Below, in pieces: positions 13,373 to 64,000 of a DNA stretch of 64,000 bases. The DNA is from Candidatus Latescibacterota bacterium. GTDB lineage: Bacteria; Latescibacterota; UBA2968; UBA8231. The DNA is taken from contig OZ244561.1 in NCBI GenBank assembly GCA_965217585.1, forward strand, positions 3,680,001 through 3,744,000. The letters are read 5' to 3'. Every line of letters starts with the position of its first letter. Position 1 is the stretch's first letter. Under the pieces are notes generated by a model. It worked only from the letters and a program-made list of their open reading frames with translations. It ran no database searches and was not told the DNA's origin. The translations under genes and the position numbers were made by a program.

Positions 13373-13376
13373 ACGC

Positions 13377-15778: not shown

Positions 15779-15909
15779 ATCGCGCTCCTTCGTCGCCCGA
15801 GCAAATATGCGGTGTGGGATCGATCTTGCCAAAGGCCAACAGGCCCGTCGTTGACCTAGCGTACCATTTATCCTAAATTGGTGTGCATACATCTTAGAGA
15901 GCCTATTCG

Positions 15910-17358: not shown

Positions 17359-17363
17359 CCGCC

Positions 17364-21924: not shown

Positions 21925-21928
21925 TGGG

Positions 21929-26233: not shown

Positions 26234-27209
26234 AGCGGATGCGCGGGTCGGCAATGGCCAAGAGAATGTCCGACAGCAGGGTGCCGATCACCGTTAGGAC
26301 GCTGAGTACGAGGAGGAAACTGCCCGCCAAATACATGTCTTGGTTGCGGAGGGATTCGAGCAGCAAGGGGCCGGTCGTCGGCAGGCTCAACACCACGCTG
26401 GTGATGGCCGAGCCGGAGATCAGGTGCGGCAGCATCCAGCCGACCGTGCTGATAAAGGGATTGATGGCAATGCGCAACGGGTACTTAATGACCAAGCGGA
26501 CCGGGCCAAGACCCTTGGCCAGCGCCGTCGTTACGTAGGGCTTGCCCAGCTCGTCGAGGAGATTGGCCCGCATGATCCGCATCAGCCCGGCCATGCCAGC
26601 CGTGCCGATGACCACAGCCGGGATCCACAGATGCCCGAGCAGGTCGGCGAATTTGGCCAAGCTCCACGGCGCACTGGCGTATTCGGGAGAAAATAACCCG
26701 CCCACGGCGATCCCAAACCACTCGTATCCCAAGTACATCAAAACCAGTGCGAGCAGGAAGTTGGGCGTCGCTAGGCCGATGAAGGCCGCCAGGGTCGCCG
26801 CATAGTCGAGCGCTGAGTACTGGCGCAGAGCCGAATAGACGCCCACCGGGAAGGCGACCAGCCAAGTCAACAAGGTCGCGGTCGAGGTGATCAGCAAGGT
26901 GTAGCCGAGCCGTTCCCAGATCAGGTTGTTGACCGATTGGCCGTACATCACCGAATAGCCCATATCGCCTTGAAGGAAGCCGCCTATCCACTTGCAGTAT
27001 TGGATAAACATTGGGTCGTCGAGGTGGTAGCGGGCGCGCAGGGCGGCAATCTGTTCCTCGGATATGTCTTGGCCCTCGGCCTGTAGCTCTTGCAGGCGCG
27101 ACGTGATGATGTCCCCGGGCGGCAACTGGATGACGACGAAGACCAGCACCGAGACGGCTAGTAGCGTGGGAATCATAATCAGGACGCGGCGGATAATGTA
27201 GTTGATCAT
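26226..27209 (-). CDS. Oligopeptide ABC permease (OppB-like)
   Basis: YIIRR, YVTTALAKGL, ADPRIR. Confidence 0.92.
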   Translation of the reverse strand: MINYIIRRVLIMIPTLLAVSVLVFVVIQLPPGDIITSRLQELQAEGQDISEEQIAALRARYHLDDPMFIQYCKWIGGFLQGDMGYSVMYGQSVNNLIWERLGYTLLITSTATLLTWLVAFPVGVYSALRQYSALDYAATLAAFIGLATPNFLLALVLMYLGYEWFGIAVGGLFSPEYASAPWSLAKFADLLGHLWIPAVVIGTAGMAGLMRIMRANLLDELGKPYVTTALAKGLGPVRLVIKYPLRIAINPFISTVGWMLPHLISGSAITSVVLSLPTTGPLLLESLRNQDMYLAGSFLLVLSVLTVIGTLLSDILLAIADPRIRYE

Positions 27210-27212
27210 GGC

Positions 27213-29174: not shown

Positions 29175-29316
29175 CAAAAATACACCACACAAAAGAGGCG
29201 CGCCGCCTGAGGGCGGCTAATAATTGAGGCCAGAAGTCTAAAGCTATCGCGCCCATTGCGCCAGAGGGCGCGGCGGCCTACTTTTTTTAGGCATCAACAC
29301 GAGAGGAGGAGGCGAT

Positions 29317-45659: not shown

Positions 45660-45660
<1 letters not shown>
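42722..45660 (-). pseudogene. res: Type III restriction subunit Res, frameshifted near 43038
   Basis: Start MAKKKAK coupled to the mod stop (TGATG); [23 protein letters not shown]. The nuclease motif HPDFILW...FVDPKG lies in another frame after LVDKSQEE. Confidence 0.85.
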
Positions 45661-48965
<3,305 letters not shown>

Positions 48966-49251: not shown

Positions 49252-50160
49252 TTAGTGAGCAGATTTGATCTGGCCCCAGCTCACGTCCTCGACAGCGGTC
49301 TCTTCCATCTCCGCCAGCGAAGGCTCCATCTCGGCCAGCACCACGTCGTTGGTCGCGGTGCAGCAGCTTTCCGGCGACATGGTCCAGAAGCCCTGATAGC
49401 TTTCGCGCACACACTCGGTGCAGGCCTCGTCGAAGTCGCCCACGGTCACGGAAGTGTGAATGATCTCGTTTTCCGCGAGATCGAACACCACGGCTTGCTC
49501 TGGGGTGGCCGACGCGTCATTGGGCAACGCGATGATCGGCGTGATGGCTAGCTCGTAATAATAGGTGCTCTCGCCGAACTGCTCGCCGTCGTAGCTCCAG
49601 CCAAAGTCCACCCAGTCGCTGCCATCTACCAGCCACTCGAGCGCGCTCACCGGGCGGTAGAACTGATAGGCACCTTCGACCGGCGGCACAGCCCACTTGT
49701 AGCTAAAGTTGTTGGCCGGCTCGCCTTCTTGGTTATGGTCCTCGGTCGGCGTGTGGTCCGGGTTGACCTCTACTTCCCAGGCGTCGTCCTGCCAGAAGGC
49801 CGAGGGGTTTTCGCGGTCCAAGTTGTGGACATTGTCGAAGACCTCGGTCATGTAGTAGAGCTTGTTGGCGCTGTCGTTCCAGCCGATGAGGTGGCGGATG
49901 TTAATGTCGCTGACATCGATTTCGCCACGGCCCACGGGCTGGATGTCGGCCACTGGCGAATAGAGGCGGTCGTTGCGGATCGTGTACGGATCGATCGGCA
50001 CGACGTCCCAGTCCGACAGGTCGCCGTCCATGGTGGGGACGAGATTGTCGGGGAACTGCACGGCGAAATAGAGCTCGCCGGGAGGCGCGTGGCCAAAGGA
50101 CGTACCGCACAGGCCCATGACCAAGACTGCCGCTAAGACGAATTTGCTCCGCTCTTTCAT
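49252..50160 (-). CDS. Secreted acidic CBM9/DOMON-like protein with C-terminal TAVEDVSWGQIK tail
   Basis: GGAGG RBS, signal peptide, PTMDGDLSDW, IGWND...YYMTEVFD, DAWEVEV, YYYELAI. Confidence 0.7.
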   Translation of the reverse strand: MKERSKFVLAAVLVMGLCGTSFGHAPPGELYFAVQFPDNLVPTMDGDLSDWDVVPIDPYTIRNDRLYSPVADIQPVGRGEIDVSDINIRHLIGWNDSANKLYYMTEVFDNVHNLDRENPSAFWQDDAWEVEVNPDHTPTEDHNQEGEPANNFSYKWAVPPVEGAYQFYRPVSALEWLVDGSDWVDFGWSYDGEQFGESTYYYELAITPIIALPNDASATPEQAVVFDLAENEIIHTSVTVGDFDEACTECVRESYQGFWTMSPESCCTATNDVVLAEMEPSLAEMEETAVEDVSWGQIKSAH

Positions 50161-50276
50161 AGCGAAAACCCTCCTTAGGAGAAGTGAGAAATGCTGTATA
50201 AAACAATATGTACAAAGATACAGCGCACTCGGCACGCGCTTAGTGCCTCAATGAATAAACAACTCAGCGCCGTTTG

Positions 50277-52397
50277 TCAATAAGCGACCGCGAGGATGCC
50301 GGTGCGTTCTTCTTTCTCTTCTAGTTGCAGCCGCCAGATATAGGTGCCCGGGGGTACGAGCTGCCCAGCGGCGTCGCGGCCGTCCCAGCGATGGGCGAAT
50401 TCGCCGCTGCGAGCAGTGATGGACGGCAACTCGACCACGAGTTGGCCGGCGAGGTTGTAGATCGCCAGTCGCACTGGGCGGCTAGCCGTGACTTCGCGCA
50501 GCTTGTAGGCGATTTCCAAGGTCTCGTTCAGCCCGTCGCCATTCGGCGTGAGCGGGTTGGCAGTCACCGCAATATCGACGAGGAGCCGACCGCCGACGGG
50601 TGTATTGATGGCGAGGGCGTCGCCCGAAAAGCGAAAGGTAGCGTTGCCCGGGCGAATTTGCTGCTTGATCTGGTCGGGGTCGTTGCTGTCGAAGACCCAG
50701 CCTGAAAACTCGGTGCCAAAGCGCAAGACCGGCACGACAAAGCTCACTAGGAGCTGTTTGAAACTGTCGCCTTCGCCTTGCAGGCGGGGGAAGGACACCA
50801 CGAAGCGGTCGGCTTGGATATCTGGGACAAAGTCGTCCAAATCGAGTTCGGTGCCGTCGCGTTTGACCGCAGAGACGGCGCGGACTTGGGCGTGGGTGCG
50901 GATCTCTAGCCGGTCGAATCCAGTGTCATCGGCGCTGAATTCCGGCCGGACAACGTATGTAAATTCCGTGGGCGCGAAGGAATCGACGGCAATGGGCCAC
51001 ACCTCGCCGAGGATTTCGCGGGCGGCCGGTGCATTGCCGAATTGGAGTGTGAATGAGCGGATGCGGGGCGCGGTGGTAAAGGTGGAGAACAGGCGAAAGG
51101 CGAGTTGGATGTAGCGGCTCGGCCCGGGCGACAAAAGCGGCGTGCCGTCGCGCCATGCCTCAGCCGGCGCGTCGCTGTCGCGCAAGCCCGCGGCAAAGTC
51201 GTAGGGCGGCGACCAAAAGCTCCAGTTGTCGGTGTCGTACACGGTGGGCAGGCGGCCGGACGGGTCGAGTTTTCCGTAGGCGGCCAAGGTGATGGGTCGA
51301 ATGTCGCCGTTGATATTTTCGTCGAAGTAGAGACTGGGATCGGGGGTGTTGCCGGTGCGGGTGCGGACCTCGATGCGGGTGCCCTCGGGCACGTCGGCGT
51401 CCCAGCGAATTTTGCCCCAGTTGATCGGCTGGCCAAAATCGAGGATCTGGGTGACAAGGACGGTCTCCTCGACAAAGCCCTCGCCGTACACTTCGAATTC
51501 GGCGACCTCCCAGTCGCGCAAAGGGAAGGCTTGAGCCGTGATCCAGCGAATTGACTCGGTGGGGAAGCTCAGTTCGACTACTGGATCGAGATTTTCGCGA
51601 TTGGATTTGATCACAGTGAGCTGGGGATCTTGGTTGCGCACCCAGTTCAGACCCTTGGTGACGCGGCTGACCTTGTCACAGGGGCTGTTGGCAAAGCGCG
51701 CATTATTGTCGCCGACGCGGATTTCATACCAAGCGAGAAAGTTGCTGGCAAAGCTATCTATGCCAAAGTGTTCCAAGGGGGGACGAGGCTCGGTGAGTTC
51801 GTTGATGAGCAATAGGTCGTCCTCTTGACCGAGGCGGGGAAAGAAGCGGATGCGGTTGACGGGCACGGCCGCACGAAAATCTATGACGACCGCTTGTTTC
51901 CAGCCTTCGCCGGTGACCCCGGCGATGATCGTGCCGCCGCTGAAGATGCCTTGGCCTGGGGTGAAGCGGCGAAAGTGAGCGGTGGTCACATCGCCATCGA
52001 ATTGCTTCTTGACTACGGGAGTATGGTTATCGACGGCACCACAGCCATCGGTGGTCTGGGCCTCGCCGCCGATATAGGGCAGGGGAATCTTGATGGCCGA
52101 GGAATTGGGATCGGTCAGGGTCAGATTGACCGATGGGTCGATGAAACGCGGCTGAATGGCGTCGTCGGCAAAGTCGATGAGGGTGTCGGCAGCCACGCCG
52201 TGGGGCGTGACGCCCACGGGCTCGGTGCTCACGAACTGGCCTTCGGCATCAAAGAGCCAGTACTCGCCGGCCCCTTCTTCAGACAGCAGGTTAGGCCAGG
52301 GATTGCCGTCGTCTCCTCCGACGCGAAATTCCCCACGACTGTGCGCTGGCACAATCGACAGGACGAGCAGGAAACACGAAGCGATGATGCGCTGCAT
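50277..52397 (-). CDS. Secreted protein with discoidin-like/Ig domains and a TPNGDG-FlgD C-terminal domain (paralog 1)
   Basis: Signal peptide; NPLTPNGDGLNE, IYNLAGQLV, WDGRDAAGQLVPPGTY, ends LAVAY. Confidence 0.8.
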   Translation of the reverse strand: MQRIIASCFLLVLSIVPAHSRGEFRVGGDDGNPWPNLLSEEGAGEYWLFDAEGQFVSTEPVGVTPHGVAADTLIDFADDAIQPRFIDPSVNLTLTDPNSSAIKIPLPYIGGEAQTTDGCGAVDNHTPVVKKQFDGDVTTAHFRRFTPGQGIFSGGTIIAGVTGEGWKQAVVIDFRAAVPVNRIRFFPRLGQEDDLLLINELTEPRPPLEHFGIDSFASNFLAWYEIRVGDNNARFANSPCDKVSRVTKGLNWVRNQDPQLTVIKSNRENLDPVVELSFPTESIRWITAQAFPLRDWEVAEFEVYGEGFVEETVLVTQILDFGQPINWGKIRWDADVPEGTRIEVRTRTGNTPDPSLYFDENINGDIRPITLAAYGKLDPSGRLPTVYDTDNWSFWSPPYDFAAGLRDSDAPAEAWRDGTPLLSPGPSRYIQLAFRLFSTFTTAPRIRSFTLQFGNAPAAREILGEVWPIAVDSFAPTEFTYVVRPEFSADDTGFDRLEIRTHAQVRAVSAVKRDGTELDLDDFVPDIQADRFVVSFPRLQGEGDSFKQLLVSFVVPVLRFGTEFSGWVFDSNDPDQIKQQIRPGNATFRFSGDALAINTPVGGRLLVDIAVTANPLTPNGDGLNETLEIAYKLREVTASRPVRLAIYNLAGQLVVELPSITARSGEFAHRWDGRDAAGQLVPPGTYIWRLQLEEKEERTGILAVAY

Positions 52398-52542
52398 GGC
52401 GTCTTTTCCTTGAGATAAAAGTAATATAAAGAAAGAAGAGGGCGGCTTGGCAAGTTTGAATATAGCGCATGGCGAGCGCGCTTAACTTGATTTATGCTCG
52501 CTCTTTGGTTGTTTTATGCAGCAAATCGCACGGAGGATTGCA

Positions 52543-54633
52543 ATGAAAGCGCATTGTGCCGCAGTCGGTCTCGTCTTAGTGCTCTGGCTGCCGAGCGGAA
52601 GTTTGGCTCTCGACGCGGTCTCGATTGGGGAGGGCGGCGACTTGGACTGGCGAGGTGAAGGCGAGGCAATCGTCTCCACCATTGACGCCGAGCACCGCTC
52701 GCCCTTAGACCCCAACAACCTGCTAGTGGGCAACGCGCCCGGCGACTTAGTCGAATTCGCACGCGATGATTTTCCCCACAGCATCCTGCCGCTGCGCATT
52801 GCCGAGGGGGATAACGTGGCCGTCGGCACCATCGAGCGCGGCGGCGACATCGATTCGCCCAATGTCTTCGACTTCAGCGGTACGTTCAAGCCGCTCGACT
52901 TGAAGATGATGTTAAAGGAGTTGCTCTCGGACGACCCGGGCGGCGAGTTGTTGGCCTTTGAGCGCAAGAATCAGAACTCCCTCGGCATCCTAGTCCTGCT
53001 CAATTTAGGGGCGCGCTTCGGGGTGGAGCGGATACGCATCTATCCGCGCAATACGGTCGTATCTTCGCCCTCGACCCCCTTCCAAAACGACTACCTACGC
53101 GCGTATGAGCTGTTTACCAACGACGGCCTAAACCTGACCAGCGAGGACACGCCCATCTGGGATCCGCTGATCGCCGAGACCGACAACCAAGTCGCGGTTA
53201 TCGACGTGCCGCTCGACCCGCCGCGCTACGTCCAGCACCTGCGTTTGCGGGCGACCTCGCCGATAGACTTTGAGATCGACGAGATCGAGATTTTCGGCAA
53301 GGGCTTCCTGTCGCGGGCCCAGTACGTGTCGGACATTTTCGACGCCGGGCAACCAGCCGTGTGGGGCGCGCTGCGCTGGGTGGAAGAGGTGTTGGGCGAT
53401 CCGCGCTTCTCCAGCGCGCAGATCCGCACGCGCACGGGCACGGACACCTCGCCCTTTGTGTACACCCGCCGGTTGCGCGGCAAGCAAGACGCCGATGACA
53501 TCCCTTTTTCGCTGGAAAATCCCGGGGAGGGAATGGGCCTAGCCGAGTACCGGAAATTTCCCCAAAAGGCCGGTCAGACGCCCATTACCGACGCTGCGGG
53601 CCGCGAGTGGATGGCCGGGGCCGTGACTGACGACCTGATCAATTGGAGTCCTTTCAGCACGCCTTATCCGGCGAGCGCAGCTAACGGCCCGGGCCTGCCC
53701 ATTGTCTCGCCCAGTCCGCGCCGCTACATGCAGTTCGAAGTAATTTTTAATAGCAGCGACCTAGAGGCAGCGCGGGTGATCGAGTCGCTGAGCTTCGACT
53801 TGTTGACGCCGCCGTTTGCCGACGCCTTGGTCGGCGAGGTCTTTCCGCGCGAGGTAGAGGTGTCTGAGGAAGTGTCCTTTACCTTTGCCGTGCGCGCCGC
53901 CATGGGCACCGCCGACCTGCGCGGCTTCGACACCATTGAGATTGACACGCCGGCGCGGGTGTCGAGCATCGACGCAGTGCAGATTATTGATGGCGATGGT
54001 GCGGTCGTGGCCGAGCATCAGTTCGCTAGCCTCGACGCGGCTGGCGAGGATTTCGCCATTGCCGAGGTGACCGACGACCACTTTGCCGTGCGCTTCCCCG
54101 TGGTGACCGACGACCAGACGCAGGTGCATGTTCGCTTCCAGACCAACGTGCTGACGTACAGCACCAACTTCACCGCTGCGGCGCGGCTGACGACCGAGCC
54201 GGGTGCCGCCCAGGTCATCGACCCGAGCAATGTGGCCTTTTTGGGCGAAGGGGACGAGGACGCCTTTTCCGGCACCACGGTGCTCAGCCCGTCCGTATTG
54301 GCCGAAGGGCAGCTACTGGGCCAAGTGCAGGCGGCACCCAACCCCTTCACCCCCAATGGCGACGGCATCAACGACGAAGCGGTCATCTACTACAACCTGC
54401 TGGCGCTGAGTACTGCGCGGCCGGTCGAGGTAGCGCTCTACGACTTGAGCGGTCGGCGCGTGCGCGTCCTCTTCGCCGGCGAAGAAGCCAACGGCCGCTA
54501 CACGGACAAAGTGTGGGATGGTCGCGACGACCAAGGCCAAGCCGTTCCCCCGGGCCTGTACGTGGCCCGCGTCTTTGTCGCCGGGGACTCGGGCGACGCC
54601 GAGCAGAGCCGCGTCGTAGCCGTCGTTTACTAA
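52543..54633 (+). CDS. Secreted protein with TPNGDG-FlgD C-terminal domain (paralog 2)
   Basis: GGAGG RBS, signal peptide; NPFTPNGDGIND, LYDLSGRRV, WDGRDDQGQAVPPGLY, ends VAVVY. Confidence 0.8.
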   Translation: MKAHCAAVGLVLVLWLPSGSLALDAVSIGEGGDLDWRGEGEAIVSTIDAEHRSPLDPNNLLVGNAPGDLVEFARDDFPHSILPLRIAEGDNVAVGTIERGGDIDSPNVFDFSGTFKPLDLKMMLKELLSDDPGGELLAFERKNQNSLGILVLLNLGARFGVERIRIYPRNTVVSSPSTPFQNDYLRAYELFTNDGLNLTSEDTPIWDPLIAETDNQVAVIDVPLDPPRYVQHLRLRATSPIDFEIDEIEIFGKGFLSRAQYVSDIFDAGQPAVWGALRWVEEVLGDPRFSSAQIRTRTGTDTSPFVYTRRLRGKQDADDIPFSLENPGEGMGLAEYRKFPQKAGQTPITDAAGREWMAGAVTDDLINWSPFSTPYPASAANGPGLPIVSPSPRRYMQFEVIFNSSDLEAARVIESLSFDLLTPPFADALVGEVFPREVEVSEEVSFTFAVRAAMGTADLRGFDTIEIDTPARVSSIDAVQIIDGDGAVVAEHQFASLDAAGEDFAIAEVTDDHFAVRFPVVTDDQTQVHVRFQTNVLTYSTNFTAAARLTTEPGAAQVIDPSNVAFLGEGDEDAFSGTTVLSPSVLAEGQLLGQVQAAPNPFTPNGDGINDEAVIYYNLLALSTARPVEVALYDLSGRRVRVLFAGEEANGRYTDKVWDGRDDQGQAVPPGLYVARVFVAGDSGDAEQSRVVAVVY

Positions 54634-54752
54634 CGCCCCAGTCTCTCGAACTGCTTTTGCACCCGTGGGTCGTCGGGTAACACGCTGAGCGGTCCATGCC
54701 CGAAAACCGCCCAGCGGCTCGCGTTGTGCATCGAGAAGTCGCTTTCTGCGGA

Positions 54753-56966
54753 TCAACCGCCGAAAATTTGTTCGATCTGGGCTTCCATTTCCCGGCGTGC
54801 TACCCTTTCCATGCGATAGGCGCGCTGACTGAGGCTAAAGGCCGCGAATTGGGCGTCCGCGTCGGCTTGGCGTCCGGTGCGTTGGTAGAGGTGCCCGAGG
54901 AATAGATGGGCTTGGTAGTCGCGCGGAGCGATCTGGAGCAAATGCTCAAACAGGGTCACGGCCTCTGCATAGCGCCCTTGGCGGGCGTAGAGCATCCCCA
55001 AGCTCCAATGGGGATGCGCGGCCTTGGGGTCGAGCGCGATGGCGCGGCGCAAAAGTCTTTCGGCCTCGGCTAACTGGCTCGTTTGCCCGAGGGCCATGCC
55101 CGTCCCTTGTTCGAGTTGGATGAGCAAGTCGGCGAGGCGGGTTGGGTACTCGGGAATGTGCGGTTCGCGCTGCACGAGTTGTTCAAACTCGGCGATGGCC
55201 TCGCGATTTTGCCCTTGCTCGGCGTACAGGCGAGCAAGTTGATAGCGCACGAGCGTCGAGTCCGGGTTCAGTTCGAGCGTACGGCTATAAGCTCGGGCTG
55301 CGCGCTGGGGTTGGTCCGTCATTAGAAGGGCGTAGCCGAGGCCGCCGTGCGCCGCTGCCCAGTTGGGACGCGCCGCTGTGATCTCAGAGTACGAGGCCGC
55401 GGCCTCGTCGTAGCGCCGAGCGAGCAACGCGGTGTGGCCGAGGAGAAAGCGCACGTCCGCGTCGTGGGGCCGCGTTTTAAGATAGCGCCGATAGAGGTCG
55501 ATGGCCTTGCCGTAGCGCTTGGCCTCGCCGTGGAGCGCCGCGAGCGCGAGAAGTGGCTCGGCGAAGTCGGGGTCGCGGGCCATGGCGCGGCGGTAGTGGC
55601 GGGCGGCGTGGGCCGGCATGTCCCGTTCCTCGTAGGCGTAGCCGAGATAGTAGTGCTCGTGGGCATCGCCCTCTAGGTCCATCGCGCCCGTGGCCACATT
55701 GCAAAAGACCAAGAGGGCGGCAAAGGCGGCGAGCGCGGGCCAAGGCCGGTGCCACAGGGCGCGCACCCCACAAGCCGCAAACAGCAACAGCACGGGCACG
55801 GCCGGCAGGCGATAGCGCCCGGTGACGAAAAACAGCACCACGGAAAGCGCGTAGCAAGCCACAAAGAGCGCGAGCAAGCGCCCCTCGGGAGGCTCGGGGG
55901 AGCGCAGAAAGGTAAAAAGCCCCATTAGGGCCAGCGGGGCGACCAAGCCGAAGGGAAACGCCAGCCCCTTTTTCCACAGCAGGATCGACAACAGCGAGGA
56001 GTCGTTGCGGGCAAAGTAGAGGTCGCGGTTGCGCGGGATTTCGTCGCCGCGCAGGAACAGATAGCCCTTGTAGGCCAGCAAGCCCAAGAAATTGAGCGGC
56101 TCGGAGGTTATGTACTGCCAAGATTGGGCAAAGAAATAGCGCGACTTGGCCGAAGGCTGCTCAATGCCGGCGCGGATTTCGGGCATTTCCACCAGCTCGG
56201 CCCAAGCTCGTCCCGGGCGGATGCGGGTCGTTTGCGCGTAGTCGGCGTTGTTGCCGATGTAAAAGTTGATGCCCGCGTTGTGCGAGATGAGCACTAGATC
56301 GTCGCCTACCGCCCAGTTGCGATACGCGACCGGCGCGATGACCAGCGCACAGCCCAAGAGCAGGAGAGCCGGTGGGCGGAATCGCCGCTGCCGCCAGTAG
56401 AAATAGCCCAACAGCACGAGCGCGAAGAGCAGCACATTGGCCACGGCGAGCGCGGACAGGCCCAGCAGCACACCGGCTGCCAGCGCGCGCGCCCAACCGC
56501 CCTCGCCGACTACGAGCAACAGAACGAGCAAGTTGAGGCAACAGGCCAGCAGGGTTGGCAGCAACTCGCCGCCAAAATAGATGAGGGGTCCGTACAACGC
56601 CGCGGCAAAACCCGCGCCTAGCCCGACCCCCGCGCCAAAGACCCGGTACCCCAACAGGCAGATGAGGACGCAGACGAGTGCGCCCATGACGGCTTGGATG
56701 AGTCGCGGCAGGTAGAGGTCGTCCCCAGCGACGGCAAAGAGGACGCCGAGCAGCACTGGGTAGAGCGGCGGTTGCCAGAAGGGCGCGGGCCGACCGGCAA
56801 AGGAGACGTCGCTTAGGTAGCGAGCGTCCTCGGCATAGGTGCGGGCATCGACGACGGGTGCGGTGAAAAGCGGGCTGGCGCGTATTTCGTGGAGGTAATA
56901 CAGGCGCGCTGAGAGGGCGAGCGCGAAGACGGCCACCACCCCCATGAACATCCAGCGTCTAGCCAT
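54753..56966 (-). CDS. GT-C fold (PMT/ArnT-like) membrane glycosyltransferase with C-terminal TPR array
   Basis: First-loop DARTY, FWQPPLYP, many TM segments, GINFYIGNN, RYRLP, then TPR repeats. Confidence 0.78.
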   Translation of the reverse strand: MARRWMFMGVVAVFALALSARLYYLHEIRASPLFTAPVVDARTYAEDARYLSDVSFAGRPAPFWQPPLYPVLLGVLFAVAGDDLYLPRLIQAVMGALVCVLICLLGYRVFGAGVGLGAGFAAALYGPLIYFGGELLPTLLACCLNLLVLLLVVGEGGWARALAAGVLLGLSALAVANVLLFALVLLGYFYWRQRRFRPPALLLLGCALVIAPVAYRNWAVGDDLVLISHNAGINFYIGNNADYAQTTRIRPGRAWAELVEMPEIRAGIEQPSAKSRYFFAQSWQYITSEPLNFLGLLAYKGYLFLRGDEIPRNRDLYFARNDSSLLSILLWKKGLAFPFGLVAPLALMGLFTFLRSPEPPEGRLLALFVACYALSVVLFFVTGRYRLPAVPVLLLFAACGVRALWHRPWPALAAFAALLVFCNVATGAMDLEGDAHEHYYLGYAYEERDMPAHAARHYRRAMARDPDFAEPLLALAALHGEAKRYGKAIDLYRRYLKTRPHDADVRFLLGHTALLARRYDEAAASYSEITAARPNWAAAHGGLGYALLMTDQPQRAARAYSRTLELNPDSTLVRYQLARLYAEQGQNREAIAEFEQLVQREPHIPEYPTRLADLLIQLEQGTGMALGQTSQLAEAERLLRRAIALDPKAAHPHWSLGMLYARQGRYAEAVTLFEHLLQIAPRDYQAHLFLGHLYQRTGRQADADAQFAAFSLSQRAYRMERVARREMEAQIEQIFGG

Positions 56967-56996
56967 ATAGCAATCCTACATCATTCATAAGATGAT

Positions 56997-57024
56997 CCGC
57001 AGATGGACGCAGACAGACGCAGAA
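56997..57024. repeat. Short 10-bp-period tandem repeat (CGCAGA x3)
   Basis: CCGCAGATGG ACGCAGACAG ACGCAGAA in the intergenic gap. Confidence 0.55.
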
Positions 57025-57081
57025 TAGTAGGAACAAGACGATCCACCGCTCGAACCGTTCAAGTCATGCCGGATTGCTATA

Positions 57082-59745
57082 TCATTGCAAGCCCGCGTAG
57101 ATGGAAATAAAGATCTGGTTAATAATCACGGCGTCCTCGCCCCGGGGCTGGCGGCGGTCGATTTTCATCCCCGCATGAGTCGTGACCTTGTAGCCGAGAT
57201 AATCGGAGGTATTGGCTAGCTGCAAGGCCCAGACTAGGCCGTTGAAGTCGTTGGAGTCGCGCTTCATGTCGTTGAGGAAGGTCAGCTCCAGCCCGCTCAG
57301 CAGGGTCGTGTGGCTGAGCAGGGGAAAGCCAAGGACGAAGCCGCCGATCTCGGCCAACTCGGTGCGTGCGTCAGCCGAAATTAGGTCGCGGCTCTGGTGG
57401 CGATACTCGCTTTTCCAGCGCGGCTCCAGCCACAGGTGCCCAAAATCGAAGCGGTAGCTGATTTTGTTGATTAGGCCAAAGAAAAAGTCGCGCTCGCGCA
57501 GGCCCAACAGCGCGCGCTCATTGGCGCTGAGCCGCTGGTGATAGAGGTCGTATTTGAGGTAATTGGCCGTCAGCAGGCCGCGCAGCTTGTAGTCGTGGCC
57601 GATCCACAGGCTGTTGATCCAAGCGTCGCGGGCGATGAGGGGATCCTCGACTTTGGTTGGTTCGCCGGTGCGGATATTGGCGTTGGGCAGCCACTGCAAG
57701 AGGTCGTCGGGAATGTCGTCGGTGGTGGATTTGAGCATCTCAAAGGCGCGGAAGCGACCCCAAGAAGGGTGGTGGTAGTCGAGAGTTAGCAGGGCGTAAT
57801 TGGCGTGGTTTTTCTGGTTGGAAGAAATGAGGCCCTCGCGCAAGACGCCGACCATCAGCCGCACCTCCGGGGTGAAGTGGACGCCGCCGTAGGCGTTGTA
57901 CCCGCGGTGATCCTTATTGTAGGGGTAGTCGGGCAGTTCGTCGTTTTCAAAGCGATCGACCCACAGGTTGTTGTTCAAGTCGATGCCGAAGAGGAATTCG
58001 GGCCGATCGACGTTGTGGCGCAAAAACGGCTCCTCGTAGTCCGGGATGAGGTTACTCAAGAAGCGGTTGTCGTTCTGGTTGAAATCCGAGATGAAGTCGT
58101 TGTTCTCGTCCCAGCCGGGGAAGACGCTCGGATCGCCCACCTGCCAGTCCTTGCGCACTGTGTCGGGAAATTCGTCTTGGTCGTCGTTGTCCTCGACCAG
58201 CTCGACGACGTGGATGCGTTCGTCCTCGTAGTCGATAAAGCCATCGCCTTGGGCGGTGAACGTGCGGGTGGAGTAGCGAGGATCCATGCTGTATGCCTCG
58301 CCGAAGAAGAAGAAGGGAAACGCGACCCGCGAGAGGTTCATCATCCACGCGGCCGCGGCGCGGTCGCCGCGGATGCCCGAGAAGGTGGTGTGGGTTTTGG
58401 CGACTACATTGGGATATTTGGTGTAGCTGTAGCTGAGATCGTACTCGCCGTAGAAGTCGAAGCCGAGGACCTTTTGCAACTCTATGGTTGCTCCCCAGAT
58501 CTGGGTGGAAGTCGGCAGGCCGTAGTCGAAACTGACGATCTGCAAATTGGTGTTGTCTTGGACATTGCCCTCGGCTTGGGCGACGAGCAAGAGCACGGAT
58601 TCGCCGCTGAAGTTGAGCTGGCTGTCGGAGGTGACCCAGACCTGATAGTCGTTGCCCAGCACGAGGCGGAACTCGACCTTTTTGATTTCTTCTTTGGTGC
58701 CCGAGGCGCGGTTGACAAAGGCCGGGCTGTCAAAGTCGTAGCGCAGGCGGATCTCCTCGACGCCATCGGCCGAGAGAAAGCCCTCCCCCACGAGGCCGCC
58801 CTCGACGATCGGCTCAAAGCGAATGGCCTTGCCATTGTCTTGAGTTCCGTCGAGATAGGTGATAATGATGTCCGAACCGGCACTGAAGAAGGCCGCGCCG
58901 CCGACGCCGTCCTCGGGGCTGTCGTCGCGCAAGACGATCTCGATGATCGAGACGGTCTGGTTCTGATCGACTGTAAGCTCACCGGTGAAGGGGTTGCCGG
59001 TAAAGCCGTCGATGAGGGTGTTGGACTGGTGGGCGTTGACCATGGTCAGCCCTATGGTGGCGAAGTCGCCCACCTGCGCGGTGGTGCGGCTGCCGAACAT
59101 AGATGTTTCGTTGGTGACCAAGCTCTCTTGATCGTTGGTTGACGTGCCACCGGGGCGGCTGATACGCGAGTAGATCAGGGTGCCTTGGTATTTGTCGGCC
59201 GCGTAGTCGAATTGAATGCCGTCCCAGCGCGGCTTGGAGAAGGTCATCGGCGTCAGGGTCGAGCGGATCTTGGTGCCGGCCGTCAGGGCGTAGTGGTGCT
59301 GGCCCTTGGAGTCGGCCGAGATGACCAAGCCGCTAAACCACCCCTCGAAATTTCTGGACTTCAGCACAGAAGAGCCAAACTGCCGAGGCTGGGTCTGCGA
59401 GTTGTTGAAAATCAGCCAGCCCCGGGTGATGAGGTTGCCGTAGAGGTCGTAGTAGTAATCGCCCTCGCGGATGGCGCTGACGTAGCGCTGGTAGTGATCG
59501 CGGGCGTAGTTGGAGTATTCCCACTGTCGCCACTGGTATTCGTTAAAAAGCTCCTGTGGCACGTACCACCTGCGCTTGGCCGGGTCGAGGGCGCCGAACA
59601 GGACGCCGGGCCCCTGTGGCTCAAAGGAAACCACCCCGCCCCTTTTGACCGTGCCGGTGCGAGCGCCGTATTCCTGGGCTTCGGCAGCAGCACTGCCGAG
59701 CCACAGGATGGCTATTGCCGTCCAGAATATCCATCTCCGGTTCAT
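57082..59745 (-). CDS. Secreted 887-aa hypothetical protein, probably outer membrane, with Asp/Asn-rich loops
   Basis: AGGAGG RBS, signal peptide MNRRWIFW...AEA; amphipathic beta-strand pattern; EDNDDQDEFPD, WDENNDFISD, DLNNNLWVD. Confidence 0.75.
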   Translation of the reverse strand: MNRRWIFWTAIAILWLGSAAAEAQEYGARTGTVKRGGVVSFEPQGPGVLFGALDPAKRRWYVPQELFNEYQWRQWEYSNYARDHYQRYVSAIREGDYYYDLYGNLITRGWLIFNNSQTQPRQFGSSVLKSRNFEGWFSGLVISADSKGQHHYALTAGTKIRSTLTPMTFSKPRWDGIQFDYAADKYQGTLIYSRISRPGGTSTNDQESLVTNETSMFGSRTTAQVGDFATIGLTMVNAHQSNTLIDGFTGNPFTGELTVDQNQTVSIIEIVLRDDSPEDGVGGAAFFSAGSDIIITYLDGTQDNGKAIRFEPIVEGGLVGEGFLSADGVEEIRLRYDFDSPAFVNRASGTKEEIKKVEFRLVLGNDYQVWVTSDSQLNFSGESVLLLVAQAEGNVQDNTNLQIVSFDYGLPTSTQIWGATIELQKVLGFDFYGEYDLSYSYTKYPNVVAKTHTTFSGIRGDRAAAAWMMNLSRVAFPFFFFGEAYSMDPRYSTRTFTAQGDGFIDYEDERIHVVELVEDNDDQDEFPDTVRKDWQVGDPSVFPGWDENNDFISDFNQNDNRFLSNLIPDYEEPFLRHNVDRPEFLFGIDLNNNLWVDRFENDELPDYPYNKDHRGYNAYGGVHFTPEVRLMVGVLREGLISSNQKNHANYALLTLDYHHPSWGRFRAFEMLKSTTDDIPDDLLQWLPNANIRTGEPTKVEDPLIARDAWINSLWIGHDYKLRGLLTANYLKYDLYHQRLSANERALLGLRERDFFFGLINKISYRFDFGHLWLEPRWKSEYRHQSRDLISADARTELAEIGGFVLGFPLLSHTTLLSGLELTFLNDMKRDSNDFNGLVWALQLANTSDYLGYKVTTHAGMKIDRRQPRGEDAVIINQIFISIYAGLQ

Positions 59746-59800
59746 GCAATCCCTCCTAAGGTGCGTCAATGATAATCGGCCCCGGGCGTTCCAGCAATAA

Positions 59801-62800
59801 CTAGTAGGCCACGGCGATAAGCCGCGCTTGGGTCGTCGGGTGCCCTGCGGCGTCGGCGTCGAGTTGGACTTGGCACAGATACAGCCCGGGCGGTGCTTGG
59901 CGGCCGCGGTCATCGAGGCCGTCCCAACGCACGGTGGTGCGGCCGCTTAGCACCATCTCCTCGCGCTGCCAAATCGGTCGCCCATCGAGCGCGTAAATCC
60001 GCACTTGGAGGCGGCGGCTGGAAGTGAGCTTGAAGATATCCAGCGAGATTTCAGCCGCGTCGTTGATCCCGTCGCCGTTGGGGGTAAAGGGGTTGGGACC
60101 GACTGCGAGGCCATGGAGAAGGCCGCTATCGATGGGGACCTTGATTGCTAGCGTGTTGCTGCCGACACTTTCGTCGGCGTTGCCCGCTTCAACGGCCTGC
60201 CACGCCACTTCGGCGTCGGCGCTCGCTGCATGGCGCACGAACAGGCGCAAGGTCGTACCGTTGAGAAAGACCGGTGCTGAAAGGCGCAGGCGAAAGCGCT
60301 GGCCCGGCCCGGTCACAATGCCGCGATTAGTCGAAGAGAGGCGGTTGTACGCTGCCGAGTCGAGCGAGTCGCCTCGCGCGTCAAAGGGAAACTGGGCCCC
60401 ATCGCCACGCAGAATGCGGAAGTAGCGGACGGGGCCTTGCTCTTCGCTGGGCAGGTCGCCGTAGCTGGTTTGGTCGATCTCGCTGAGCCGGTCGCCATTG
60501 CGGCGGAAATAGCGGATGGCCCCTCGTTCGTCTTTGTCGAGGGTCCCGTACGCCGCGGCCGTAAGCGGCAGGCCGTCTTGGGTCACGGGTACCTCTTCGC
60601 CCTCGAGGGTAATGCGGTTGTACGTGCGGCTGGTCGCGGGCAGGATGTTGAGCGCGTCGTCTAGGCGCACCCAGATCGAGTCGCCGCCATTCGCTATAAG
60701 CGCGACTTGCGTCTGGTCGTCGGCCGAGAGCACGCCGCGCTCGGTCCCAAGGCGAAAGACCTGCTCGTCGTCCGGGCCGCCGATGCCAAACTCCACGAGT
60801 TCGAGGTTTTCCGAGGCCGGCATGGTCAGCAGGATTTCGTTGAAGCCAGAGCTGCGCGAGGCTGAGGGCGACTCGATGAAGTAGGGCTGGGCAAAGACGT
60901 CAAAGGTCTCCCGCTCACCGGAGGTCTCCACCGAGGCCGGCCACAGCTCGGCCGCGATGCGCTCAGCCACGGGATTGAGCAGTTCGACCGCGAGCGAGCG
61001 GATCGAAGCTGCGGCCTCGCGATCGGTGGTAATCATCTCGACTTGGAACTGCAAGAACTTGCGCAGGCCGGGGGAGGTGACGATGTCGCCGGGCTGCTGG
61101 TAGGCGCGGCTCCAAGGGCTCCAGCCGCTGGTGGGCACGAAGGTGGTGTCGGCTGGCCCCTTGAAGCTGCCCAAGAGGTTTTTCCAAGCGTCATAGGTGA
61201 TTTCGTTGCCCGAGCTATCGAAGTAGCGGATGACCTTGCCCAGCAGGTCGCCGGTGCGGGTGCGGATTGCGACGGTCGTGCCCGGGGGCGTTTCGGCTTC
61301 CCAAGTGATGGGCCCGAAGTTGCGCGCCCCAGGTAGCGCAATCAGATCGGAGGTCAGCTCTACTTGCGCGGGGTAGCCAGTGGAAAAAAGCTGGTACTCG
61401 ACGATGGTCGGTCCGGTGTTGTACCCACCTCGGCGGCGCGGGTCTGCCGAGATGATGCTTATTTCGAGGAAGCGGAGCTTGGGACTGGGAGTATAGGTGT
61501 CGATGATGTGCTCAAAGCGGTCGGTGCTGTTGTCCTCGCGGAAGCGGGGGCTGAGGCGCGCCCACTTGATCTTGCCGCGCGTGTCGCGCGAGCCGTCGGA
61601 GCCGCGGATTAAGTAGCCGTCGATAAAAGGCCGGGGCCGGGCCGAGGAAATGCGCATGACGTCGAGCCAAAACGACGCGCCCATGTCGACGGTGAGCACG
61701 CCGCGGTCGATGGTCGGCGACCAAACGAGGTGCAGGAAGCTGGTGCTGAAATCCCCATCAAAAGCCGGCCCTGGTATGAAGCCGTCGCCGGTCAGGTTGA
61801 GTTGACCGCCGCCGGCCACCAACCCGCTGCTGATGTTGTCGCCAAACCCGTACACCTCGATTCCGGCTAGGCGCGGTCGTTCGCGCCGGTAGTAATCCAA
61901 GCGGCCTTGGCGCTGGGGGTCGAGGCTTTCATAGACGGTGCGTTCGACCGGCTCTTCAAAGCCCTGTTCGTCGCGGATGAAATAGACAATTGCGCCGCGC
62001 TCGTCGGCTGGCAGGGCCTGCCATTCATCTTCGCTGGTCGGCTCGCCGCGCTGGCCGCGGGTATCGCTGACCACGATGCGGATGGTCTGCACCAGCCTGC
62101 CCTGCCAGTCGGGGTCGGCTTTGAGCTGTTCGAGACCGATGCGAAAGGTGCGCTGGTCGCGGTTGGGGGCCTTGGTGTTGGCGATTCGTTCAAAGGTGAT
62201 TTTGTCGGCGTTTTCCTGCACCGGCTCTTGGTCGGGCGCGGCGAGGACGCGGAACTGGAAGAAGGGGTCGCCTAGCTCTTCCTCGACGAAGTGGATGACG
62301 AGGGAATCGACCGCCACGACGCGGCCCAAGTCCATTTCGATCCACCAGTCGTCGAGTGGTGCCTGCGGGTCGGGCTCCCAAAAGGTGGTTGGATCGTCGT
62401 CGAGGATGTGGGCGGCCGCGGCCTCATTCGAGCCGACGCGGCTGATACCTGGGCGAAAGAAATAGGAGTAGATGGGGTTGCCCTTGCGGTCGAGGATGAC
62501 CTCGCCTTTCACGTCGCGGGTTTGGGTACTGTCGATGTTGAGGATGGCGTTCTGGTTGCGGCGGCGACGCAGATCCACGATGGGGCGGGTGAAGGTCTCT
62601 AGATCGTCGAGCAAGTTGAAATGCGCGCGGAAAAAGTGCGGCTCGACGGTGCCGTCCGGCGACACCTTCACGGCGTGGATAGGTAGCTGCCAATTGTGCC
62701 AGTGCGCGGCCCTATTGACCACTACGGAGCGGCTGGTGACGCGGTGGCCCTTTTGGGCGTGAGCTGCGACCAGCGGTGCCAAGCAGATGCCTATAAACAC

Positions 62801-62812
62801 TAAGAGTCTCAT
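59801..62812 (-). CDS. Secreted protein with two discoidin-like modules and TPNGDG-FlgD C-terminal domain (paralog 3)
   Basis: AGGAGG RBS, signal peptide; ILDDDPTTFW, WIEMDLG, AFDGDFST, NPFTPNGDGIND, WDGLDDRGRQAPPGLY, ends IAVAY. Confidence 0.8.
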   Translation of the reverse strand: MRLLVFIGICLAPLVAAHAQKGHRVTSRSVVVNRAAHWHNWQLPIHAVKVSPDGTVEPHFFRAHFNLLDDLETFTRPIVDLRRRRNQNAILNIDSTQTRDVKGEVILDRKGNPIYSYFFRPGISRVGSNEAAAAHILDDDPTTFWEPDPQAPLDDWWIEMDLGRVVAVDSLVIHFVEEELGDPFFQFRVLAAPDQEPVQENADKITFERIANTKAPNRDQRTFRIGLEQLKADPDWQGRLVQTIRIVVSDTRGQRGEPTSEDEWQALPADERGAIVYFIRDEQGFEEPVERTVYESLDPQRQGRLDYYRRERPRLAGIEVYGFGDNISSGLVAGGGQLNLTGDGFIPGPAFDGDFSTSFLHLVWSPTIDRGVLTVDMGASFWLDVMRISSARPRPFIDGYLIRGSDGSRDTRGKIKWARLSPRFREDNSTDRFEHIIDTYTPSPKLRFLEISIISADPRRRGGYNTGPTIVEYQLFSTGYPAQVELTSDLIALPGARNFGPITWEAETPPGTTVAIRTRTGDLLGKVIRYFDSSGNEITYDAWKNLLGSFKGPADTTFVPTSGWSPWSRAYQQPGDIVTSPGLRKFLQFQVEMITTDREAAASIRSLAVELLNPVAERIAAELWPASVETSGERETFDVFAQPYFIESPSASRSSGFNEILLTMPASENLELVEFGIGGPDDEQVFRLGTERGVLSADDQTQVALIANGGDSIWVRLDDALNILPATSRTYNRITLEGEEVPVTQDGLPLTAAAYGTLDKDERGAIRYFRRNGDRLSEIDQTSYGDLPSEEQGPVRYFRILRGDGAQFPFDARGDSLDSAAYNRLSSTNRGIVTGPGQRFRLRLSAPVFLNGTTLRLFVRHAASADAEVAWQAVEAGNADESVGSNTLAIKVPIDSGLLHGLAVGPNPFTPNGDGINDAAEISLDIFKLTSSRRLQVRIYALDGRPIWQREEMVLSGRTTVRWDGLDDRGRQAPPGLYLCQVQLDADAAGHPTTQARLIAVAY

Positions 62813-62819
62813 GGTGGCC

Positions 62820-63020
62820 TCCTGAGAATCCGGTAGTGCGCCTCGCGTTGGGCGATGCGGATGCGGCCGGGAAAGGCGCTCATAGTTGAAGCAAATAGGT
62901 CGAGATGCCCGTCGTTGTCAAGATCGAAGAAGAAGCCACATACCCGCCTTCCACCGGGAAAAGGACTCCAGTGCGCTTGGCCACCTCGGCAAAGGTGCCG
63001 TCGCCGAGGTGGCGAAAGAG
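62820..63020 (-). pseudogene. Remnant of an FG-GAP (CRTAC1/ASPIC-UnbV-like) gene
   Basis: Hand translation gives LFRHLGDGTFAEVAKRTGV, then after a frameshift FFFDLDNDGHLDLFAS. Confidence 0.7.
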
Positions 63021-63025
63021 GCAGC

Positions 63026-64000
63026 TTACGGCTCTTGGTCCAGTTCGCCTAGCTTGGCCCGGGCGCGCTGGTGATCCGGGGCGAGGGCGAGCACCTTTTG
63101 CAAGGCTTGCCGCGCTTGCTCCCGCTGTCCTTGCTGCATGAGGATCAGCGCCAACCCGTAGTGCGATTCCGCGTGGTCTGGGTCGAGGGCAATGCTGCGG
63201 GCGAAATGGGTGTGGGCATCGCGGTAGTTTGCTTGGCGGACGTAGGTCAGCCCGAGGACGTAGTGGGCGTCGCGGTGGTCGGGATTGCGGGCGAGGGCTT
63301 GGCGCAGCGCGGTGACGGCCCCGGCAAAGTCGCCGCTTTTGAACCGCGCGCGGCCCAAGCCATAGGCCGCGGCAAAGGAGTCGGGATCGATTGCCAAGGC
63401 GCGGGCAAAGTGCGCGTTGGCTTCTTTGAGTACGCCTTCGTGCAAGTACAGGTCGCCCAGCATGATGTAGGCGTCGCGGTGGTCGGGCTCGCGGGCGAGG
63501 ACTTGCTCCAGCGCGGCGCGGGCGTCGGCAAAGTGCTTTTGCTGTGCGTACACGGTGGCGAGACGCAGGCGAATGTCCACGGAAGTAGAGTCGTTGGCGA
63601 GGGCGCGCTTTAGGGAGTCAATCGCCTTGTCCCACGCGCGTTGGCGGATGTAGATGTTGCCCTGATTGAGATGGCGTTCGGCCGTGCTCAAGCGCTGGAA
63701 GCGGCCCTGCGCGTTGCGGGCGTCGTCGGGGCGGTCGCGCTCGGCGTAGGCTTGGGCCAACAGGTAGTGGGGAGCGGGGTTGTGCGGCTCGGTGGCGGCG
63801 ACGCGCTCGAGCACGGGAATGGCCGCTGCGGGTTCTCCGAGGCGGATGAGCAAGCCGCCCAAGCCGAGACCGCCTTGGACGTGGTCGGGCGCGCGGGCGA
63901 GCAGGTCGGCAAAACCCGTGCGCGCTTGAGATAATTGCTGGTTGCGCACGAGGAGGTCGCTGTGGTAGTAGCGGGCCTCAAGATGGTCGGGCGCGAGTTC
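63026..64000 (-). CDS. TPR repeat protein, 5' end outside the window
   Basis: Frame open to the edge (ELAPDHLEARYY...); repeated AL...PDH..A.Y.LG units. Confidence 0.88.
   Translation of the reverse strand, partial: ELAPDHLEARYYHSDLLVRNQQLSQARTGFADLLARAPDHVQGGLGLGGLLIRLGEPAAAIPVLERVAATEPHNPAPHYLLAQAYAERDRPDDARNAQGRFQRLSTAERHLNQGNIYIRQRAWDKAIDSLKRALANDSTSVDIRLRLATVYAQQKHFADARAALEQVLAREPDHRDAYIMLGDLYLHEGVLKEANAHFARALAIDPDSFAAAYGLGRARFKSGDFAGAVTALRQALARNPDHRDAHYVLGLTYVRQANYRDAHTHFARSIALDPDHAESHYGLALILMQQGQREQARQALQKVLALAPDHQRARAKLGELDQEP

Follow-up and report, generated by a model that had tools for sequence, protein, structure and literature searches.

What does a run of about 15 kb in the genome of a Candidatus Latescibacterota bacterium do, when almost all of its genes encode exported or membrane proteins? 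The run occupies positions 49,252 to 64,000 of the 64,000-nucleotide stretch that we analyzed (the window; contig OZ244561.1 of assembly GCA_965217585.1). A sequence-only reading had described it as a locus for surface-protein export or display that encodes three proteins with TPNGDG/FlgD-type tails (here the A-type, B-type and L-type proteins, or binders), a probable outer-membrane protein of 887 aa (here the barrel), a GT-C glycosyltransferase with tetratricopeptide repeats (TPRs) and a protein with a C-terminal WGxIK tail, and both open reading frame (ORF) and Pfam checks recovered all of these genes where that reading had placed them. We show here that the region is the GT-C-carrying subtype of an envelope cassette that is present in many copies. 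We further propose, at slightly below even likelihood in our judgment, that such a cassette combines binders exported by a type IX secretion system (T9SS) with a dedicated barrel into a surface capture and uptake unit.

The source genome, a single contig of 7.32 Mb that is 94.6% complete, contains 80 barrel-family ORFs, as revealed by BLAST against its ORFs. Fifty-three relatives of the barrel show 34-73% identity and 26 are distant (25 at 23-29% identity and one short fragment). A hidden Markov model that we built from 167 tails detected the domain at the C-terminus of 259 ORFs; a first look had given 260 CHU_C candidates, and 149 of the 150 candidates that were scored matched CHU_C. Grouping of these genes yielded 93 clusters spanning 729 kb, or 10.0% of the genome. 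Barrel and at least one binder occur together in 48 clusters (581 kb, 7.9% of the genome), 28 of which also hold a BLAST-detectable gene for a CBM9-like protein, the family of the WGxIK-tailed product, and 11 a GT-C gene. Therefore, the region is not the single dedicated export locus that had been proposed, but one of 48 clusters of cargo plus barrel. Of the 80 barrel genes, 77 have a tail-bearing gene no more than 10 kb away; in the other direction, 155 of the 259 tail-bearing genes are this close to a barrel gene, against a random mean of 47.4 and a random maximum of 64.

The order of the genes is partly shuffled between copies and their composition is kept. The closest paralogous cassette, at 2214628-2233096 of the genome, has an identical gene order with every gene on one strand, and its L-type gene (2229971-2233096) encodes the closest L-type paralog (57% identical). 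Relative to this cassette, the B-type gene is flipped in the window. No inverted repeats flank the flipped gene; only three short imperfect pairs were found, none of them in a flanking position.

The C-terminal domains of the three binders, about 90 aa long with an NP[FL]TPNGDG motif, all exceed the Pfam CHU_C (PF13585) cut-off of 27 bits (A-type 44.9, B-type 28.6 and L-type 29.9 bits), and those of the A-type and B-type proteins also pass FlgD_ig (32.9 and 32.0 bits, respectively). All three tails listed by the sequence-only reading are thus CHU_C domains, and two of them are FlgD_ig domains as well. In the genome search the domain of the A-type protein maps to 3730289-3730561. The type B model TIGR04131 (cut-off 35) gave 23.5 bits for the A-type protein and no match for the B-type and L-type proteins, and the type A model TIGR04183 (cut-off 23) gave 16.6 bits for the A-type protein, the sole scorer among the three.

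The binder tails resemble the C-terminal domain of PorU, and a full-length PorU is encoded in the genome (627.5 bits against a cut-off of 420). Next to it lies a PorV-like gene (153.8 bits, E 1.5e-44, below the cut-off of 250), the pair occupying 578110-582436, and three further, weaker PorV-like (FadL-type) genes were found elsewhere. A SprA homologue was correctly reported from the window (SprA_N 83 bits). As a member of the cassette it was rejected: it is unlinked, 44 kb away, and the unrelated genes in between encode LptFG, SelA, an Opp transporter, a transposase and a restriction-modification pair. Judged by sequence, the SprA translocon, PorV shuttle and PorU sortase that mark a T9SS appear to be present. 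The PorP/SprF model TIGR03519 had no match in the genome, nor did any control genome match it; likewise, the models for GldL, GldM and GldN (TIGR03513, TIGR03517, TIGR03523 and PF12081) gave 0 matches in this 94.6% complete genome, in a search run without a positive control, and the match to TIGR03525 (GldK) covers the FGE-sulfatase part only (80.6 bits against 350). The suggested genome-wide search for T9SS parts thus returned PorU and PorV-like proteins and left PorK/L/M/N and PorP unmatched, again without a positive control. Assignment of the binders as T9SS-like cargo accordingly stands on the genome-wide tail, SprA, PorU and PorV-like proteins, and falls short at TIGR04131. PorU itself bears the tail and co-occurs with the barrel, which fits tails that serve as T9SS signals.

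In the passages available of two published reports, a ten-component model found T9SS in Bacteroidetes alone (PMC4793230), and type B cargo of Bacteroidota binds a PorP/SprF barrel whose gene is often adjacent (PMC11205867). Our literature searches returned no paper joining Latescibacteria with "type IX secretion" and none on a barrel-and-binder cassette, and the passages available of one PAUC34f paper and one Latescibacteria paper do not mention T9SS or the cassette.

The 887-aa product, which has a signal peptide, is predicted to be a large barrel of a new family, in line with the earlier suggestion of an outer-membrane protein. It has no Pfam or NCBIfam match (E up to 0.01) and no sequence match in the PDB; these searches included the PorP/SprF family model, and no Plug or TonB-dependent receptor/SusC match was obtained from Pfam or NCBIfam. 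An AlphaFold2 (AF2) model from a 34-row alignment shows a large beta-barrel (pLDDT 75.5, pTM 0.74), to which DSSP assigns about 22-26 long strands, with short turns alternating with long loops. A beta-rich insert (residues ~245-400) and an acidic Asp/Asn-rich stretch (~517-610) both fall in long loops, which are presumably external. Across 34 sequences with identity down to 25%, D519, D521, D522, D524, D546, D550 and D554 are invariant, as are D589, N591, N593, D597 and E600. The 1-3-5-9-12 spacing of this stretch is EF-hand-like, making it a candidate calcium site.

Fold comparisons place the barrel near no single family. The best Foldseek match is MtrB (6r2q_B; E 4e-8, TM-score 0.27/0.34), followed by LptD, SlpA and FimD, and the top VIA Z-scores (13-14) belong to FhaC, Sam50 and TamA. 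Other generic matches include PgaA (Z 13.1), PelBC (Z 12.1), BcsC (Z 11.5) and FimD/PapC; SusC and siderophore receptors are weak generic matches with TM-scores of at most 0.25. Since TM-scores do not exceed 0.34 and identity is 6-9%, these matches reflect generic barrel geometry only. In the ESM Atlas the nearest named cluster is DUF6029 (score 0.89), and hmmscan gave no DUF6029 match. A co-fold of the barrel (residues 24-887) with the last 124 residues of the L-type protein, run without controls, gave ipSAE values of 0.00 and 0.00 and a mark of 0.32 and speaks neither for nor against binding. At least 900 public homologs exist, all of them unnamed and none with a Pfam domain; where an organism is stated it is Candidatus Latescibacteria/Latescibacterota and, once, Handelsmanbacteria. 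Among 1.84 billion representatives, 1207 clusters (50% identity), all nameless, matched the barrel profile at E up to 0.001, and 430 did so at 1e-30 or below. On the strand opposite the barrel gene, 57805-59142(+) forms a 445-aa open frame that most likely stems from the high G+C content rather than from a real gene.

We next consider the distribution of the family in a sample of 121 genomes of the phylum, comprising families f1-f14. Barrel genes occur in 72 genomes, among them the whole of f1 (40/40) and the majority in f5-f7 and f9-f14. They are absent from f2 (0/29), f3 (0/2) and f4 (0/13), and a weak match was obtained in one of five f8 genomes. At closer range, all 12 same-genus genomes carry barrel genes, from 19 to more than 44 each, and eight genomes of two sister families carry none. 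Full PorU exceeded its cut-off in 71 of the 121 genomes and is found in every barrel-bearing family. Instead of full PorU, the f2-f4 genomes encode a C25-like protein (about 1900 aa; 225-280 bits) whose match to the PorU model is limited to the N-terminal 740 positions. SprA_N is more widespread (113/121), f2-f4 included.

The neighborhood is also conserved outside the source family, as the sequence-only reading had asked of relatives. In a genome of another family, all three loci that were fetched combine binders and a barrel with a gene for a tailed CBM9-like protein, and two also have GT-C/TPR. In more distant families (genomes G023, G026 and G033), barrel genes of a divergent subfamily stand in tandem triplets and binders are fewer. 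Such a triplet also lies 8 kb past the window (9202-17726 of locus L098; 3752202-3760726 of the genome), where three divergent-subfamily barrel genes, whose products are 23-28% identical to the window barrel, stand head to tail and are followed by a TPR gene; the same arrangement was seen in distant families at loci L033 and L037.

The 302-aa CBM9-like protein ends in ...TAVEDVSWGQIKSAH. Its CBM9_1 (PF06452) score of 18.7 bits is below the cut-off of 23.4, and in the nearest ESM Atlas clusters 13-94% of members carry CBM9_1. BLAST detected 36 CBM9-like paralogs in the genome, 32 of which end in TAVE-xx-[ST]WG-x-IK. Of 27,651 open frames with at least 100 aa, 66 carry the strict tail pattern at the C-terminus, and the pattern is absent from reversed tails, five internal-window sets and five shuffled-tail sets. 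Twenty tailed proteins lie outside the BLAST-defined family: two PD40 propellers, one FGE-sulfatase, one Temptin_C protein, one Cache protein, four with weak CBM9_1 matches (one passing the cut-off, at 25.3 bits), one with a sub-cut-off DUF3994 match only and ten without a match. The occurrence of the tail on unrelated families indicates a general tag. Tailed genes are linked to barrel genes (40 of 66 within 10 kb; random mean 11.6, maximum 24), and a tailed ORF is present in 18 of 20 paralogous cassettes.

For the phylum we used a DNA pattern for VE-x(2-4)-WGxIK, whose backwards control gave 0 or 1 match per genome. The pattern matched 57 of the 121 genomes, spread over most families that have the barrel. 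We discounted single hits in f2 and f4, each with a TGA stop, and three out-of-frame hits in two f10 genomes, which left real tails in about 53 of the 72 barrel-bearing genomes and in 0 of the 49 barrel-less ones, four PorU-bearing f8 genomes among them. A stricter [ST]WGRIK pattern, applied to five genomes, gave 30 matches in the source genome and 0-2 in four barrel-less genomes; four matches in f2 genomes start with TGG or TGA and have no Ser/Thr codon. Barrel, full PorU and tag are thus jointly missing in f2-f4, and barrel and tag in four of the five f8 genomes. A literature search on the tail strings returned only one unrelated densovirus paper. As a general C-terminal tag, WGxIK has the same range as the barrel family.

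Beyond their tails the binders offer few matches. All 26 members of the A-type family match CHU_C and FlgD_ig and nothing else in Pfam. The AF2 model of the A-type protein (26-row alignment; pLDDT 67.3, pTM 0.51) is all-beta and multidomain, and Foldseek relates it to strings of beta-sandwich domains, such as complement C5, ScpA, adhesins, galactose oxidase and PorU (TM-score up to 0.19), with no enzyme fold found for this model of pLDDT 67. The L-type protein scores 24.8 bits with F5_F8_type_C and 25.7 bits with F5_F8_type_C_2, both below cut-off. To call the binders "sugar-binding" is a guess.

A survey of 117 unclassified ORFs around 20 paralogous cassettes with Pfam identified a recurrent partner, a double-parvulin gene (product of 540-690 aa) present in 17 of the 20. 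Its 38 paralogs cluster with barrel genes (30 within 10 kb; random mean 6.9, maximum 15). The copy past the window end scores 91.5 bits with Rotamase_2 and 61.1 bits with Rotamase, and its best sequence match in the PDB is SurA (E 5e-12); the SurA N-terminal chaperone domain gave no match in it. From its parvulin domains and exported location, we class the product as a putative SurA-type periplasmic chaperone.

DUF6785/DUF6784 genes occur in 6 of the 20 cassettes (one a fragment). The genome holds 74 DUF6785 paralogs with nine or more hydrophobic segments, and 35 of them lie 10 kb or less from a barrel gene, against a random mean of 13.4 and a random maximum of 23. A PDB sequence search with the protein gave nothing meaningful, and our literature search found no paper naming DUF6785, DUF6784, PF20581 or PF20580. 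As an obligate part of the cassette DUF6785 was rejected, because it is abundant without the barrel and was not found in barrel-bearing f10; it is a frequent neighbor outside the core set. Other families that recur in the flanks are GFO_IDH_MocA, Amidohydro_2, MR_MLE, PhyH, SBP_bac_1 and a TOBE_2-type ABC ATPase.

In the GT-C/TPR protein, an N-terminal half that crosses the membrane several times is followed by TPRs at the C-terminus (TPR families to E 1e-29), and the matches of this protein in a PDB sequence search run through the TPR repeats only. With PMT_2 (PF13231; cut-off 26.1) the window copy scores 23.9-25.2 bits and all four cassette relatives pass at 39.1-51.4 bits; the earlier GT-C assignment therefore holds at the family level and is marginal for the window copy. 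About 20 full paralogs were found by BLAST.

Contigs from RNA libraries (four runs from two studies) touch parts of all seven genes at 95-100% likeness. They are thin on the L-type and TPR genes and interrupted by gaps, and contig depth cannot rank the genes. Because DNA carry-over is possible in these libraries, they argue only weakly for expression. In each of two runs (X16 and X17), one contig spans the junction of the GT-C and barrel genes. In these contigs, which are about 96% alike and come from a related strain, 15 other letters replace the 117-base spacer between the two genes (56966-57084).

The features are collected in the table below. Six genes of the region lie on the minus strand and the B-type gene alone on the plus strand, as confirmed by an ORF check. 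The soluble products have signal-peptide-like N-termini on direct reading of the translations, and every cassette product has a Sec signal or is a membrane protein. The window copy continues for about 4.1 kb past the window end, with TPR, double-parvulin and DUF6785/DUF6784 genes.

Table. Features of the window copy and its continuation. Positions refer to the window, or to locus L098 where this is stated.
Feature	Position	Strand	Remarks
CBM9-like protein, exported	49252..50160	-	302 aa from MKERSKF; longest ORF to 50235; signal peptide
WGxIK tail, TAVE-xx-SWGxIK-x2-3	49255..49299	-	extreme C-terminus of the CBM9-like protein; pattern
A-type protein, exported	50277..52397	-	706 aa; all-beta multidomain (model); CHU_C/FlgD_ig C-terminal domain
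Sorting-type C-terminal domain of the A-type protein	50280..50561	-	residues 613-706; NPLTPNGDG; Pfam stretch 613-703
B-type protein	52516..54633	+	705 aa; A-type-like tail; Pfam
GT-C (PMT_2-like) membrane glycosyltransferase	54753..56966	-	C-terminal TPR repeats; Pfam
Barrel (predicted), undescribed family	57082..59745	-	887 aa from MNRRWIFW; AF2 model; longest ORF to 59913
Acidic Asp/Asn-rich stretch of the barrel	57916..58197	-	residues ~517-610; alignment
L-type protein, exported	59801..62812	-	1003 aa; CHU_C tail; weak discoidin-like stretch; directly upstream of the barrel gene
TPR protein	63026..64000	-	482 aa complete; split by the window end; Pfam
SprA homologue	2..5326	-	context only; SprA_N 83.1 bits; full ORF 2145 aa
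TPR gene	L098 26-1474 (same gene as 63026..64000, in full)	-	Pfam
Double-parvulin gene	L098 1478-3628	-	Rotamase + Rotamase_2; Pfam
DUF6785 + DUF6784 polytopic membrane protein gene	L098 3136-5088	-	DUF6785 E 1e-122; Pfam

Several observations concern the remainder of the window. Directly downstream of the cassette, 43000-48965(-) contains a ResIII/DEAD helicase ORF and an N6_N4 methylase ORF that resemble a restriction-modification pair; they lie in different frames and overlap by about 750 bases, which could reflect an over-long start call or a frameshift. At 20911-29192 an Opp-type ABC operon (two ATPases, two permeases and an SBP_bac_5 protein) is broken by a DDE transposase gene (23332-24276) and a short N6_N4 methylase ORF (24250-25098). 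A gene for SelA, selenocysteine synthase, lies at 9868-11286(-), and some UGA codons are probably read as selenocysteine in this organism.

Taken together, these data lead us to the following model of the cassette as a capture and uptake unit. The SurA-like chaperone would escort the barrel, and perhaps the cargo too, across the periplasm. The A-type, B-type and L-type proteins would traverse the outer membrane via SprA, be handled by PorV and PorU, and remain on the surface at or near the barrel of their own cassette, whose long loops would present the beta-sandwich insert and the invariant, calcium-site-like acidic stretch. The GT-C/TPR enzyme may glycosylate one of the beta-sandwich proteins in the periplasm, and the WGxIK tail may address the CBM9-like protein to the barrel; both the binding of tail and barrel and the modification of cassette proteins by GT-C are what we infer from the gene set. 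The barrel would then admit the captured ligand, most likely a glycan, to the periplasm, where the DUF6785 membrane protein and the sugar-type enzymes encoded next door would take it over, and about fifty diverged copies would provide about fifty specificities. A bolder form of this model is an envelope-spanning capture-and-uptake machine of SusCD-independent origin, in which the binders feed a barrel of about 24 strands served by a dedicated SurA-like chaperone, periplasmic partners dock to it through the WGxIK tail, about fifty copies (8-10% of the genome) form a substrate-specific repertoire, and the T9SS works without the GldKLMN motor and ring. We regard this whole as doubtful.

A number of findings weigh against a capture and uptake unit. 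GldK/L/M/N were undetected, in a search made without a control genome of known T9SS, which leaves the energy supply of SprA unexplained; similarly, the barrel matches neither Plug nor a TonB-dependent receptor and so has no known energy coupling. The barrel and A-type models are of moderate confidence, and neither the conserved N-terminal 110 residues of the barrel nor its acidic stretch is confidently folded. Linkage is incomplete: 104 of the 259 tail-bearing genes, PorU included, have no barrel gene within 10 kb, so the tag in itself does not require the barrel; likewise, 26 of the 66 WGxIK-tailed proteins are encoded at a greater distance than this from every barrel gene. Moreover, the tail pattern is missing from families f10 and f14 and from four f1 genomes, all of them with barrels, and DUF6785 is abundant in barrel-less f2 and f4 (25-56 candidates per genome) and was found in 0 of 13 f10 genomes. 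The co-occurrence counts overstate independence because the families compared are related. With respect to substrates, sugar binding is weakly founded, since the discoidin (L-type) and CBM9_1 matches are under cut-off; lectin families match none of the 26 A-type members, and among the 117 flank ORFs none matched glycoside hydrolase or polysaccharide lyase families, nor sigma/anti-sigma or hybrid sensor families.

The same data could be read, in line with the sequence-only reading, as display alone, with the barrel standing in for PorP/SprF to anchor the tail-bearing proteins and the copies forming an adhesin repertoire, for instance for attachment to a host or to particles, with no transport. 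We consider this possible, if distinctly less than probable. The tail-bearing neighbor of nearly every barrel gene (77/80) speaks for display, as does the binding of type B cargo in Bacteroidota to PorP/SprF barrels, often the products of neighboring genes, in the passages available (PMC11205867), and the control-free search found no PorP-family protein for 259 CHU_C-type tails; in addition, the A-type model is an adhesin-like string of beta-sandwich domains and the scanned ORFs of the cassettes include no degradative enzymes. A barrel of about 24 strands is, however, far bigger than an anchor requires. PorP/SprF proteins are about 300 aa long. Display would also leave the tailed CBM9-like protein, which has no T9SS tail, without a role, as well as DUF6785 and the sugar-enzyme neighbors; it would not account for the 104 tail-bearing proteins without a nearby barrel gene, and the three further PorV-like (FadL-type) genes could themselves act as PorP-like anchors.

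Export in the opposite sense is unlikely in our view. Here the barrel, the TPR proteins and GT-C would export or assemble a glycoconjugate or a protein fiber, as do PgaA, BcsC, PelB or chaperone-usher systems, and the FlgD_ig-like tails would be structural Ig domains. TPR proteins do flank the barrel, the GT-C enzyme follows it, 17 of 20 cassettes have a dedicated periplasmic chaperone, and PgaA, PelBC, BcsC and FimD/PapC are among the generic fold matches. However, these matches are no better than those to unrelated barrels, synthase, Wzx/Wzy and polymerase families were absent from the 117 flank ORFs, and GT-C is present in only 11 of the 48 clusters; furthermore, PorU bears a tail of this kind and, in its full form, is found together with the barrel family. 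It is more improbable still, to a degree that we would hardly entertain, that the genes form no functional unit and are neighbors through repeated duplication of a block of unrelated expanded families. Duplication of whole cassettes alone would hold genes together within one genome, and DUF6785 is distributed independently of the barrel, but composition is constant at 25-73% protein identity within the genome and in another family, it is kept where gene order is partly shuffled, and the joint losses in f2-f4 (barrel, full PorU and tag) and in four of five f8 genomes (barrel and tag) point to a unit.

If the proposal of a capture and uptake unit is true, an uncultured phylum devotes up to a tenth of a genome to an unstudied envelope module, whose new elements would be a family of large outer-membrane barrels, a cassette-level SurA-like chaperone and a short C-terminal address tag. 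The module would place T9SS-type cargo in a lineage in which only SprA, PorU and PorV-like proteins were detected among the parts searched. It thus bears on how T9SS works and is energized outside Bacteroidota, on how type B-like cargo is retained at the surface, and on whether the strategy of many specific surface capture units, known from polysaccharide utilization loci (PULs), arose more than once.

The cassette shares with type B T9SS pairs of cargo and PorP/SprF (SprB-SprF of Flavobacterium johnsoniae and PG1035-PorP of Porphyromonas gingivalis) a CHU_C domain of about 90 aa with NPFTPNGDG, cargo genes that adjoin a barrel gene, and SprA, PorU and PorV-like proteins in the genome. In contrast to them, its barrel has 887 aa and about 24 strands without a PorP-family match, its tails do not reach TIGR04131, GldK/L/M/N were undetected in a search that had no positive control, the lineage lies outside Bacteroidota, and about fifty copies occur per genome, mostly with a SurA-like chaperone and a tail-tagged protein. 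LptD-LptE, MtrB-MtrA/C and the FimD usher, in which a large outer-membrane barrel acts with a partner protein located in it or on it, provide the best Foldseek matches and have a similar number of strands, whereas TM-scores are at most 0.34, identity is 6-9% and the partner of the new barrel is putative. Eukaryotic TMTC enzymes are GT-C glycosyltransferases with TPR domains. The cassette enzyme resembles PMT_2-family GT-C proteins with TPRs in its multi-pass half followed by TPRs and is encoded among possible beta-sandwich substrates; it differs in that its gene is present in 11 of 48 clusters only.

A parallel in organization is found in the SusC/SusD utilisomes encoded by the PULs of Bacteroidota. 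Both occur as dozens of diverged cassettes in which a large outer-membrane barrel is combined with several beta-sandwich binders, and many copies lie beside an inner-membrane protein and sugar-type enzymes. However, the window genes and the 117 flank ORFs include no SusC/SusD pair, carbohydrate-active enzyme (CAZyme) or dedicated regulator that would make the cassette a PUL, and in the scanned ORFs neither a TonB-dependent receptor or Plug, SusD, lipoprotein binders, CAZymes nor PUL-type regulators were found. The binders of the cassette carry T9SS-type tails in place of lipid anchors, and the likeness to SusC/SusD utilisomes, whose parts are unrelated to those of the cassette, is one of logic only.

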